Source: Escherichia coli (lineage in GTDB: Bacteria > Pseudomonadota > Gammaproteobacteria > Enterobacterales > Enterobacteriaceae). From it: a DNA stretch of 453 nt. The position numbers and the translations under genes were made by a program. This document shows, piece after piece, positions 1 through 453 of the stretch (within the stretch, counting starts at the first letter, position 1; each line of letters starts with the position of its first letter). The notes under the pieces were generated by a model. The model was given only the letters and a program-made list of their open reading frames with translations, was not told the origin of the DNA and searched no databases. The DNA is taken from the NCBI RefSeq assembly GCF_003334335.1, contig NZ_QOWQ01000187.1. One strand, 5' to 3'.

Positions 1-374
1 TCACATGTGTCGAACTTAACCATGACAGCGTTCTGTACTTCAGGGGCCAGCTTGTCAAAAGTGACGTTCATCGGATCTGATTCAGTCTCAACCGGGACAA
101 AGGAAGCAGACTCCTCATCCCAGCGGTTTTCCTGCATATATTCAGCATCCCAGGAATCGAGGGCAGGGCGGGGTATACCGGGTTTATCCTCGCAAACAAG
201 AAATTTATAAGCGCAGTCCTGAGCAGCCGGATAATGTTCCAGGAATTGCCAGTGAAATTTTGCGCGGGCGCGACGTTCATCACCGGCTTCAATGGCAGTG
301 GCCACCGCAACAGCGCTATCTTCTTTTATGGCCTGTTCGTCAGGAATAGCAGCGCAAATAAAGATTTTACTCAT
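1..374 (-). CDS. Hypothetical small acidic protein; 5' end complete (ATG at 374..372), 3' end truncated by the window edge (at least 124 aa, partial codon at 2..1)
   Basis: Seen in sequence: reverse-complement frame from ATG 374..372 is open for 124 codons to position 3 with no stop, which is unlikely by chance at about 50% GC. An in-frame TAA at 383..381 just upstream makes this ATG the 5'-most possible start. GAGGT Shine-Dalgarno lies 9 nt upstream. Hand translation: MSKIFICAAIPDEQAIKEDSAVAVATAIEAGDERRARAKFHWQFLEHYPAAQDCAYKFLVCEDKPGIPRPALDSWDAEYMQENRWDEESASFVPVETESDPMNVTFDKLAPEVQNAVMVKFDTC. Codon choice (CTG, GAA, GCT, CCG, CAG) fits enteric usage. The residue mix looks like a folded protein, unlike the Ser/Leu/Arg-rich shadow frames. 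Absent from the ORF track only because the stop lies outside the window. Function not recognised. Confidence 0.82.
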   Translation of the reverse strand, partial: MSKIFICAAIPDEQAIKEDSAVAVATAIEAGDERRARAKFHWQFLEHYPAAQDCAYKFLVCEDKPGIPRPALDSWDAEYMQENRWDEESASFVPVETESDPMNVTFDKLAPEVQNAVMVKFDTC

Positions 375-383
375 TGTGTTTTA

Positions 384-388
384 ACCTC
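384..388 (-). promoter_or_regulatory. Shine-Dalgarno / ribosome-binding site for the minus-strand CDS
   Basis: Minus strand reads 5'-TGAGGTTAAAACACAATG-3'. GAGGT (complement of plus 384..388 acctc) matches the anti-SD core and sits 9 nt before the ATG at 374..372, within the normal spacing range. Confidence 0.55.
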
Positions 389-453
389 ATTACAGATTTC
401 AGGGTGAACGAATCCCTGCCATTGCTGGCATTTTTAATCCGTTGGTATGGCGT

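Follow-up and report, generated by a model that had tools for sequence, protein, structure and literature searches.

The window analysed here, a stretch of 453 nucleotides from Escherichia coli, contains the 5' end of an exonuclease gene and the spacer that follows DUF1482/ydfD. It represents the distal end of a prophage operon of the dicB type. The gene order is dicA/dicC ... ydfC-dicB-DUF1482, spacer, exonuclease, xis, int, and in five related loci all the annotated genes from the integrase through dicB lie on the minus strand. According to alignment with related loci and their annotation, the DUF1482/ydfD stop codon falls about 17 nt past the end of the window. Homologues of the exonuclease in E. 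coli and phage records are annotated 'exonuclease' and are about 816 aa long, and ydfE in the Qin prophage of K-12 is a truncated homologue. No credible open reading frame was found on the plus strand of the window, and a sigma-70 promoter scan of the window returned zero sites. The features are listed below, with the minus strand, which encodes the exonuclease, taken as the sense strand.

1..374, minus strand: 5' part of a RecE-like exonuclease gene, with its ATG at 374..372 and the start MSKIFICAAIPDE... (from translation and the annotation of related records)
383..381, minus strand: in-frame TAA before the exonuclease ATG
385..388, minus strand: GAGG, the Shine-Dalgarno sequence for the exonuclease; its distance to the ATG is 10 nt, and relatives retain it
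398..431, minus strand: conserved motif of ~34 nt, ATGCCAGMAATGGCAGGKATT-YNN-TCA-MYCT-KAA (alignment A3, 30 variants)
399..431, minus strand: possible mini-ORF MPAMAGIRSP-stop, starting at the core ATG 431..429; rejected as a coding unit
400..418, minus strand: hairpin 1, CAGGG / 9-nt loop / CCCUG; weak, helix not conserved
411..431, minus strand: near-invariant core of 21 nt, ATGCCAGCAATGGCAGGGATT, made up of hairpin 2, one A on its immediate 5' side and GGGAUU on its 3' side
417..430, minus strand: hairpin 2, U430-G-C-C-A426 / G425-C424-A423-A422 / U421-G-G-C-A417; the structured conserved part
431..435, plus strand: T5 run (A5 on the sense strand), of which the core holds base 431 only; 432-435 are spacer of one DUF1482 allele
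436..453, minus strand: allele-specific spacer between the DUF1482 stop and the core (alignment with L001, L002 and L003, and annotation)

The two hairpins and the T-run had been pointed out in an earlier note, and a check of the bases agreed with that description. On the plus strand, caggg at 400-404 pairs with ccctg at 414-418 around a 9-nt loop (hairpin 1), tgcca at 417-421 pairs with tggca at 426-430 around a 4-nt loop (hairpin 2), and ttttt occupies 431-435. Bases 417-418 are common to both stems, making the two 5-bp stems mutually exclusive, and the minimum free energy structure holds 4 bp + 4 bp. The expectation of short stems and low stability was borne out, with folding no better than that of shuffled controls (z -0.6 to -1.9). 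The 400-435 region gave -9.2 kcal/mol on the plus strand (z -0.84, equalled by 31 of 200 shuffles) and -9.6 kcal/mol on the minus strand (z -1.44). Hairpin 1 alone gave -6.0 kcal/mol (z -1.89) and hairpin 2 plus T5 gave -5.7 kcal/mol (z -1.36). The z-scores for 390-453 were -0.56 (plus) and -1.05 (minus), and the full spacer of a near-identical locus gave -1.21. A 44-kb phage with the element contains perfect 5-bp GNRA stems at roughly the rate that chance would give (2-3 per strand against 1.35 expected). Hairpin 2, at -5.7 kcal/mol, is weak and by itself statistically ordinary. The earlier placement of the element at 40 to 60 nt upstream of the Shine-Dalgarno sequence was wrong. It lies 12-47 nt upstream of GAGG (388..385) and 26-61 nt upstream of the exonuclease ATG (374..372).

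Hairpin 2 sits in an island of conservation. The conservation profile was computed over 20 context classes with flanks less than 75% identical. Consensus frequency was about 0.5 upstream, 0.99-1.00 in the core and 0.82 over the next 13 nt, after which it returned to background. At its 5' end the motif breaks off abruptly (431), whereas conservation fades slowly on its 3' side, and homology to the window stops at 431 in many E. coli relatives. Many contexts were gathered by exact-core scans, which are biased towards an unchanged core. An unbiased set of 160 loci was collected through the N-terminus of the exonuclease or through RacC (protein-anchored loci); the core was present in all 160 with at most 3 mismatches. 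It was intact (21/21) in the diverged, protein-anchored RacC-like loci L210 and L211, and RacC-like loci with 52-77% protein identity kept 21/21 with both spacers different. An exact core was also found in Citrobacter braakii, in a locus located by exact search. The carriers are Escherichia-associated prophages and one Citrobacter, and common ancestry and recombination could inflate the apparent conservation. Among 5,426 complete genomes, 3,955 contain relatives of the window and 1,820 contain the Rac-type copy. There is one copy per phage, including the 44-kb PPompW_132418, and E. coli K-12 has two copies, in Qin (ydfD-ydfE) and Rac (ydaE-racC). When the window was compared with Rfam up to an E-value of 10, the only matches were sR60 (E=1.3) and mir-357 (E=8.1), each more than 35 bits under its gathering score. 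In Rfam and the literature searched, the element has no family and no published description.

The core is also portable. It precedes at least seven unrelated downstream ORFs and follows at least six unrelated upstream ones, and in every context examined it sits between co-oriented cistrons on the coding strand. Its upstream partners encode Kil, YdaE-like or DUF1482 proteins, and the downstream partners encode RacC, phrog_2016 or phrog_2434 proteins, after which comes a RecE-family exonuclease. The downstream ATG lies 41-57 nt after the core start, and the upstream stop codon lies mostly 23-38 nt before the core. At the position equivalent to 436..453, at least seven unrelated upstream sequences were found in other prophages. 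When tracing across genera was attempted with DUF1482, the homologues were from E. coli in every case.

Hairpin 1 and the T5 run did not share in this conservation. Among the 30 aligned variants, 72% of cells were paired in hairpin 1, compared to 70.7% in a control slid by one position. The outer C-G pair was present in 5 of the 30 variants, while the inner pair was G-C in 12, U-A in 4, G.U in 1 and unpaired in 13. What is left of the helix across variants is an AGG/CCU kernel only. The probability that the GGG pairs downstream ranged from 0.00 to 0.89 depending on context, and hairpin 1 was not predicted by RNAalifold. Similarly, five or more A residues in the 8 nt 5' of hairpin 2 were seen in only 24 of 115 distinct contexts; the T-run is replaced in the other 91, and in K-12 Qin CTTAT (ATAAG on the other strand) takes its place. 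Hairpin 1 and the T5 run are peculiar to the window allele and incidental. The earlier note had suggested a leader structure or an operator-like dyad on the minus strand. That suggestion is supported for hairpin 2, by its conservation island and predicted sense-biased folding, and fails for hairpin 1, where pairing equals the control.

The sense loop of hairpin 2 is GCAA, a GNRA tetraloop, and the antisense loop is UUGC. GCAA or GAAA was found in 158 of the 160 protein-anchored loci, and the one common polymorphism of the hairpin is the N of GNRA. Across 90 distinct 160-nt contexts, the mean predicted pair probability of hairpin 2 was 0.90 on sense RNA versus 0.48 on antisense RNA, and on sense RNA the hairpin exceeded a probability of 0.5 in 98% of the contexts. 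In the alignment of 30 variants, 98.7% of cells were paired and three of the five pairs were invariant. Hairpin 2 was the sole helix predicted by RNAalifold. Pairing of the flanks lengthens it in Rac and Citrobacter contexts; this extension is absent from the window allele and from Qin.

No two-sided stem change was present in the 30-variant alignment, and a targeted census recovered one compensated pair, confined to one lineage. At pair 428-419 the census gave the series C-G, U.G (about 17 loci in at least 9 contexts) and U-A (4 loci). A419 was seen only together with U428 (4 loci), and no copy in the census combined C428 with a mutated 419. U.G at this position can pair on the sense RNA only. 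Uncompensated disruptions of the stem were found in about 15 loci, with C.A at 427-420 in 10 and C.U in 1, and U.C at 429-418 in 3 and U.U in 1. Judged from these comparisons, the stem is conserved as sequence, beyond mere pairing. An invariant palindromic stem is equally compatible with a DNA-binding site.

The most likely explanation, which we hold tentatively, is that hairpin 2 is the core of a putative sense-strand RNA cis-element. The element is portable and about 34 nt long (431..398, minus strand), with hairpin 2 as its structured core. In Rac-, Qin- and PPompW-type lambdoid prophages it lies within the polycistronic early-left transcript (dicB/kil type), directly before the gene that opens the recombination module. 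This place is taken by racC or a different small ORF with a RecE-family exonuclease after it, or by the exonuclease gene directly, which is the arrangement in the window. The element would act as sense RNA, in the form of a small autonomous 5-bp stem with a GNRA tetraloop at its tip. The stem is preceded by AU-rich single-stranded sequence, and the conserved GGGAUU...UCA.CCU tract follows it, ending 10-25 nt before the Shine-Dalgarno sequence. Since the stem is conserved as sequence and not only as pairing, a factor may recognise it. The element may control mRNA stability, processing or translation for the recombination cistrons, separately from the toxic small genes upstream. Hairpin 2 was provisionally classed as a structured intercistronic mRNA element, with an intercistronic site on the coding strand and folding that is independent of the flanks and better on the coding strand. 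A fuller version of this proposal, in which a hitherto undescribed, sequence-invariant RNA cis-element of about 34 nt (the GNRA-capped hairpin with the single-stranded GGGAUU..UCA.CCU tract) is recognised by a conserved factor of host or phage and gates a RecET-type module in Rac-, Qin- and PPompW-type prophages, uncoupling it from the toxic kil/dicB/ydfD genes just upstream, is possible but on the doubtful side.

Intercistronic stem-loops that give differential mRNA stability or processing are known from the malEFG REP, papBA and puf operons and from the T7 RNase III sites. The element resembles such stabilisers in lying between cistrons on the coding strand, with AU-rich single-stranded RNA before it. 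It likewise folds autonomously, is read through and splits toxic small genes from a distinct module. However, its stem is much shorter and weaker than those of typical stabiliser hairpins or RNase III sites, and stability elements do not need an invariant stem sequence, whereas hairpin 2 has one.

There is also a likeness to lambda-type boxB, in the 5-bp stem, the GNRA-type loop and the location in the sense RNA of a lambdoid early-left operon, and the sequence conservation would fit recognition by a factor. Some contexts carry CGCUCAAC after hairpin 2, which faintly recalls boxA (CGCUCUUA), but this stretch of the element varies (CGT, TGT, CAC, CTA, CTT). The boxB loops of lambda and P22 are pentaloops. 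The loop of the element is a true tetraloop (GCAA/GAAA) and not a GNRA-like pentaloop. Unlike in a nut site, no CGCUCUUA-like boxA precedes hairpin 2, and the sequence there is unrelated among contexts. Nut sites are promoter-proximal, whereas in K-12 dicBp lies some 1.6 kb upstream of the element. Nut sites also occur in both early operons, but the element is single-copy, with none in the rightward operon of PPompW_132418. A nut-like pair of sites was excluded by the one copy per phage. No N-family antiterminator is present among the annotations of PPompW_132418.

Another possible explanation is that the conserved feature is a DNA site. In this case, the dyad TGCCA-N4-TGGCA together with GGGATT would be an operator, or another site bound by a host protein or by a conserved protein of the phage, and would influence transcription or recombination where the recombination module begins. 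The perfect inverted repeat in a single copy per phage, the three of five stem pairs that are invariant, the lack of any two-sided change in 30 variants and the mostly uncompensated nature of the rare stem variants all fit this explanation. However, the conservation is asymmetric, since it begins abruptly at the 5' edge of the dyad and runs about 20 nt onward on the 3' side. The commonest stem variant is the wobble U.G of the sense RNA, and A419 appears only with U428. The central 4 bp, which are usually free in dimeric operators, stay GNRA in 158 of 160 loci. Inspection turned up none of the sigma-54, IHF, KOPS, Chi or ops motifs, and the immunity repressors differ among the prophages that have the element. 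We consider a DNA site unlikely.

The core could also be a linker, a patch of homology at which lambdoid prophages swap the recombination module, with its conservation coming from exchange and no regulation involved. Conserved boundary or linker sequences have been proposed at lambdoid module junctions (Botstein's idea of modular evolution and subsequent comparative studies), and identities of 21-35 nt are within the range used by RecET and Red recombination. The element resembles lambdoid linkers as a short identical block that joins varied modules, with one core joined to many partners on either side and homology that breaks exactly at its 5' edge (431) in many relatives. Nevertheless, the identity still needs a reason, given that the adjacent non-coding sequence has diverged to about 50%. 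A linker does not predict the loop polymorphism restricted to the N of GNRA, the U.G/U-A series or the narrow 41-57 nt spacing to the downstream start codon. The GNRA retention, the U.G/U-A pair and the fixed distance to the start codon suggest function beyond homology. A purely homologous role is decidedly unlikely.

The structure could form 3' ends on the sense strand instead, with hairpin 2 serving as a weak terminator or a barrier to 3' exonucleases that ends dicB-ydfD (or kil-ydaE) transcripts. A terminator scanner flagged TGCCAGCAATGGCA GGGATTTGTT on the sense strand of the K-12 Qin allele, where a U-rich stretch comes after the hairpin. A 1,608-nt ydfABC-dicFB-ydfD transcript has been inferred, and none including ydfE was seen (PMC10448788). 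When the start of the dicB operon transcript was deduced from the hexamers of dicBp, with the Term-seq end at 1,649,584 as a check, the end of that transcript (+1,608) came out about 10 nt past the 3' side of the stem of hairpin 2; however, the derivation of the 1,608-nt figure is unexplained in that paper (PMC10448788). In the window allele the stem is followed by GGGAUUCGUU, with no U-tract, and only 47 of 115 contexts passed a lenient U-tract test. Three G residues directly after a stem disfavour intrinsic termination. The K-12 Term-seq tables show no RNA end at either K-12 copy of the element, in conditions in which both operons were repressed, and the supplements of SMRT-Cappable-seq do not mention the genes that flank the K-12 copies. 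In contrast to what a sense terminator would give, expression is equal on either side of the element in Rac. On derepression of Rac, ydaE and racC both went up about 40-fold, and genes further downstream went up more than 70-fold (PMC6765115, PMC11014345). Since the two genes that flank the Rac copy rise alike, transcription reads through the element in that copy. Formation of 3' ends here on the sense strand is very unlikely.

It is highly improbable that the structure has no function, with chance hairpins in an AT-rich spacer and conservation from recent ancestry only. The fold z-scores do lie inside the shuffle distribution, small GNRA hairpins arise by chance and the carriers are all closely related hosts. 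On the other hand, the flanks are at background similarity, while the core is 21/21 even where RacC is only 52-77% identical. For a 21-nt identical run at a flank identity of about 55-60%, the calculated probability is about 1e-5 per locus.

The earlier note had read the hairpin and the T-run as a weak terminator on the plus strand. A lenient terminator scan did flag 417-430 + T5 on that strand, where it would be an intrinsic terminator of a transcript running antisense through the exonuclease gene. K-12 Rac has a strong plus-strand Term-seq 3' end in the racC-recE spacer, near the 5' end of recE, and that end uses a different hairpin, which is 8-bp and G+C-rich. The likeness to a rho-independent terminator (hairpin and T5 on the plus strand of the window, hairpin and U-rich stretch on the sense strand of K-12 Qin) is offset by the weak stem, the unconserved T-run and the sense read-through. 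Only 3 of the stem's 5 bp are G-C pairs, and 0.5 comparable sites are expected per shuffled window by chance. The hairpin is less stable on the antisense strand, the T-run is missing from 91 of 115 contexts, K-12 Qin among them, and the window has neither a plus-strand promoter-like site nor a plus-strand gene that could end here. An antisense terminator is extremely improbable, and the plus-strand reading is not supported. The 400-435 region is very probably a terminator on neither strand.

A translated leader peptide, in which the mini-ORF at the core ATG controls the downstream gene, has an equally slight chance of being correct. An ATG ORF of 10-13 codons, or an in-frame fusion to racC, exists in all contexts, and GGG>GGT and CGT>CGC are synonymous in this frame. 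Against this, there is no conserved Shine-Dalgarno sequence before it, and U430 and G429 of its start codon are inside the stem. Most substitutions within its first 7 codons alter the amino acid (P>S, A>E, A>T, A>K, M>I, G>E, I>V), and the core is no more variable at third codon positions than at first and second ones. The stop position varies (with the fusion to racC in Rac contexts) and so does the frame relative to the downstream gene (ATG offsets 45, 46, 47, 48, 49, 54 and 57).

Several other candidates were considered and rejected. The window sequence CAGGGAU matches the CsrA SELEX core, but the dominant Rac allele, including that of K-12, is CAGGUAU and has no GGA. By inspection, the GG-to-GC spacing is one nt short for a sigma-54 site and the GC is variable, and no match to IHF, KOPS, Chi or the RfaH ops element was seen. 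On the same kind of inspection, pairing of DicF with UCACCCUGAAA is possible in the window allele and is lost in the commoner CCCUUAAA alleles. A 7-mer match to RyhB was no more than chance, and a likeness of hairpin 1 to a T-arm or anticodon loop fails. The sRNA catalogues place AgvB and the EcOnc anti-sRNAs downstream of PR' and not at the element. The paper on Pas sRNA does not mention the locus, and the papers on the transcription factors DicC and YdaT report no site at the element.

As first described, two weak hairpins and a T-run are ordinary, and the terminator idea can be set aside. The interest of the locus comes from its context, a 21-nt core that is present in most E. coli genomes, always immediately upstream of a recE/recT-type module. 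The core would also be useful for marking a mosaic junction that recurs among lambdoid prophages. If it is indeed a regulatory RNA, it would help to explain how prophage recombination functions are expressed independently of the adjacent cell-killing genes.

The minus strand carries the window's sole long open reading frame, which begins MSKIFICAAIPDE (ATG at 374..372, in-frame TAA at 383..381). Megablast found relatives of the window in 3,955 of 5,426 complete E. coli genomes, plus lambdoid phages, and these carry the annotation "exonuclease" or "exodeoxyribonuclease VIII". The minus-strand order in annotated loci is dicA ... ydfC - dicB - DUF1482 (ydfD) - ~95-nt spacer - exonuclease (~816 aa) - xis - int and, therefore, the hairpins sit in an intercistronic spacer of a polycistronic early-left operon. 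The K-12 counterpart is the Qin prophage, where the exonuclease is a truncated pseudogene at the ydfE position. The features are as follows.

400-418, plus strand: hairpin 1, caggg (400-404) and ccctg (414-418) with a 9-nt loop
417-430, plus strand: hairpin 2, tgcca (417-421) and tggca (426-430) with a 4-nt loop
431-435, plus strand: T5 run, ttttt
431..411, minus strand: 21-nt conserved core
431..398, minus strand: conserved element of ~34 nt

Measured in the upstream direction, the hairpin region is 12-47 nt from the SD (GAGG, 388..385) and 26-61 nt from the start codon. The SD-to-ATG spacer (384-375 in the window) varies in length among the window and its relatives: GAGGTTAAAACAAAATG, GAGGTAAAACAAAATG and, in K-12, GAGGTTAAAACAAATG. 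Weak pairing of the SD to a pyrimidine-rich stretch close by is predicted in several contexts, such as AAUCU with AGGUU in the window allele. In L003 and L289 (Stx2a-converting and PPompW phages), the annotation gives the exonuclease CDS a frameshift through a 4-bp deletion, and the upstream element is intact.

Both stems and the ttttt were confirmed by a sequence check to be exactly where the earlier note had placed them. The MFE fold contains 4 + 4 pairs because the two stems share 417-418. Folds were compared with dinucleotide-preserving shuffles.

Predicted folding energies and z-scores against shuffles
400-435, plus strand: -9.2 kcal/mol, z -0.84
400-435, minus strand: -9.6 kcal/mol, z -1.44
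Hairpin 1 alone: -6.0 kcal/mol, z -1.89
Hairpin 2 + T5: -5.7 kcal/mol, z -1.36
390-453, plus strand: -15.0 kcal/mol, z -0.56
390-453, minus strand: -14.1 kcal/mol, z -1.05

The complete spacer of a near-identical locus gave z -1.21. All folds fell within the shuffle range, no region folding better than its controls, which by the earlier note's own standard counts against the hairpins as thermodynamic objects. A stronger 6-bp hairpin, GGCUGG-AUAACCCG-CCAGCU, lies just past the window end (461-480, plus strand, of the related locus L208, equivalent to window ~459-478, minus strand). It is found in the DUF1482 allele linked to the window, encloses the DUF1482 TAA stop codon in its loop, and appears in the full-spacer MFE fold.

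Hairpin 1 did not hold up as a conserved structure. In an alignment of 30 distinct variants, 72% of cells pair, compared to 70.7% with the 3' partners slid by one column. The outer C-G pair is present in 5 of the 30, and at the innermost position G-C occurs in 12, U-A in 4 (all in the lineage of K-12 Rac) and G.U in 1; 13 lack a pair there. The arm on the 5' side, CAGGG, is near-constant and the 3' arm varies (CCCTG, CCCTT, TCCTT, CCATT, ACCTT, ACCTG, ATCTT). In full-context folds, the probability of GGG pairing with the downstream CCY took values between 0.00 and 0.89, and unrelated upstream sequence was the partner of GGG in many contexts. RNAalifold did not predict hairpin 1 from the variant alignment. 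Only an AGG/CCU kernel is conserved, and hairpin 1 was treated as incidental.

By contrast with its surroundings, hairpin 2 belongs to a sharply bounded, portable island of conservation that heads the recombination module. Anchoring on the N-terminus of the exonuclease, a choice without bias as to the spacer, gave 80 IMG/VR loci; ATGCCAGCAATGGCAGGGATT was constant among them, and on its 5' side the loci divided into unrelated sequence classes. A second unbiased anchor, RacC, gave 80 loci, including a Citrobacter homologue just 52% identical, and the element was present in all 80. Allowing at most 3 mismatches, it was found in 160/160 protein-anchored loci. An exact 21-mer search of IMG/VR placed the core before at least seven unrelated ORFs (two RecE-like N-terminus types, RacC, and four other small proteins), with the downstream ATG 41-57 nt from the core start, and after at least six unrelated ORFs. 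PHROG matches identified the upstream partners as Kil-family septation inhibitors, YdaE-like and DUF1482 proteins, and the downstream partners as RacC, phrog_2016 or phrog_2434 proteins. A RecE-family exonuclease came next in every case; in longer loci it is followed by a ~261-364 aa ORF where, by position only, recT would be expected. The RacC-anchored loci L210 and L211 match over 21/21 core positions, though their spacers differ on both sides.

Column consensus frequency by distance from the core start (20 context classes, flanks <75% identical)
Upstream flank: ~0.5
Core, 0 to +20: 0.99-1.00
+21 to +33: 0.82
By ~+50: background

Each phage has one copy, and hosts comprise Escherichia and Shigella prophages, E. 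albertii, and Citrobacter braakii. K-12 MG1655 has two copies: one in the Qin ydfD-ydfE spacer (3430-3396 of the Qin locus L002), preceding the truncated exonuclease pseudogene, and a GAAA/GGT variant in the Rac ydaE-racC spacer (match H100). The Rac-type copy occurs in 1,820/5,426 genomes. Window 431/432 is a recurrent mosaic junction: homology ends exactly at 431, where the core has its 5' edge, in many E. coli genomes and phages, which continue with a different ydfD/DUF1482 allele and spacer. Two loci came from Firmicutes-assigned assemblies, L205 (Terrisporobacter mayombei NZ_JAHZMP010000179.1, 476 nt, coverage 0.79) and L208 (Lachnospiraceae MAG SFGN01000167.1, 3.9 kb, 94% identical to the window overall, spacer identical); this E. 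coli prophage DNA is almost certainly contamination or mis-binning. A Rac-like copy (match H66, 88% over 34 nt) lies at 5369-5402 of phage vB_Apl-pPE4 (PP818812.1), attributed to Actinobacillus pleuropneumoniae; the host attribution or the segment's origin looks odd.

The core of the island is a small hairpin predicted to fold preferentially on the sense RNA, where hairpin 2 reads UGCCA-GCAA-UGGCA, a 5-bp stem whose GNRA tetraloop has A-U as its closing pair; the plus-strand loop is UUGC. The GNRA loop is retained. The sole common polymorphism in the 14 nt changes the second base of the loop from C to A and gives GAAA, still GNRA and the K-12 Rac allele; non-GNRA loops (ACAA, AAAA) were found in 2 of the 160 loci. 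Since a standard alignment of variants contained no two-sided stem change, IMG/VR, with at least ~700 copies (the two anchor proteins have 474 + 264 relatives there), was queried by setting one base of each G-C pair to a non-wild-type letter and leaving its partner free.

Variants of the hairpin 2 pairs
C428-G419: U.G in ~17 loci (at least 9 contexts), U-A in 4 loci (one context), U.U in 1
C427-G420: C.A in 10 loci (at least 4 contexts), C.U in 1, no compensation
G429-C418: U.C in 3 loci (left side alone scanned)

No copy in this census had C428 with a changed 419. The U.G intermediate pairs validly on the sense RNA only, and the A419-U428 linkage is as an RNA helix predicts, but it represents one evolutionary event (p ~0.03, our own rough estimate). 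The stem is simply broken in ~15 loci. The variant pattern lends modest support to a sense-strand RNA hairpin but is not proof. Invariance of the stem sequence would also fit sequence-specific recognition, possibly of DNA. We consider a DNA-binding dyad possible but unlikely: against a symmetric operator, conservation halts abruptly at the dyad's 5' edge, yet runs ~20 nt further 3'. A recombination "linker" with no regulatory role is a less probable reading.

A sense-strand 3'-end former is also doubtful, and more so. An efficient terminator was rejected, as GGGAUUCGUU follows the stem in the window and K-12 Rac shows read-through: on derepression, ydaE and racC, which flank the element, each rise ~40-fold and genes further downstream >70-fold (PMC6765115, PMC11014345). 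A 1,608-nt ydfABC-dicFB-ydfD transcript inferred in an RNase E-ts strain, with none including ydfE seen (PMC10448788), hints the other way, toward an end at the element. With a start site derived by reading dicBp as TTGACC-17-TAATCT, the 1,146-nt species of that study would end at the Term-seq 3' end 1,649,584, and in the K-12 allele +1,608 falls ~10 nt beyond hairpin 2 on its 3' side; the study gives no source for the figure, and the Term-seq tables hold no 3' end at this site. The MG1655 1,649,584 end (L002 3893-3879) lies 25 nt upstream of dicB, after a small hairpin, CCUGG-AGGCA-CCAGG, and coincides with the "1,146-nt" dicBp transcript if the TSS is at L002 ~5013.

That the element has no function seems improbable. 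A nut/boxB site was rejected because the element is single copy, not promoter-proximal, and without boxA, and a CsrA site because the Rac allele has lost GGA. A leader peptide is very unlikely, given no SD, a start codon inside the stem, mostly non-synonymous substitutions, and a varying frame. In racC and phrog_2434 contexts (L091, core to +324; L103, core to +345), the core ATG is in frame with the downstream gene and stop-free, so ORF finders can call a 16-codon N-terminal extension (MPAMAGIRSTLIKEKN-MITNYEAT...).

The earlier note's weak plus-strand terminator is equally hard to credit: a terminator scan does flag 417-430 + T5, but a shuffled window is expected to hold 0.5 sites of this sort, the plus strand has no credible ORF or promoter-like site, adjacent genes all lie on the opposite strand, alignments of many relatives reach only position 431, the sense strand at the T5 reads AAAAA in the window versus CTTAT in K-12 Qin, an A-rich stretch (T-rich on plus) is there in just 24/115 distinct related contexts, and hairpin 2 has a predicted probability of 0.48 on plus-strand RNA versus 0.90 on sense RNA. 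K-12 Rac does have antisense RNA ends close to the 5' end of recE, at a different, much stronger hairpin. A very abundant plus-strand 3' end in the racC-recE spacer (MG1655 1,417,486), antisense to recE/racC (Term-seq table, PMC7815308), lies at an 8-bp G+C-rich hairpin (AGCCTGCG..CGCAGGCT) directly after the racC stop codon, implying that the 5' part of recE is strongly transcribed in antisense.

A scan of the window found no promoter, Rfam gave no match to it, and no description of the element was found in Rfam or the searchable literature. We tentatively favor an RNA cis-element, at somewhat under an even chance. Some factor would recognise it, and it may influence how stable the recombination cistrons are, or how they are processed or translated, separately from the upstream toxic genes. 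Its probable kind is familiar: small structured elements between the cistrons of a phage early operon. The main interpretation first offered for this site was very probably wrong, and the hairpins and T-run as submitted are ordinary; a modest lead, open to testing, is the conserved element to which hairpin 2 belongs.
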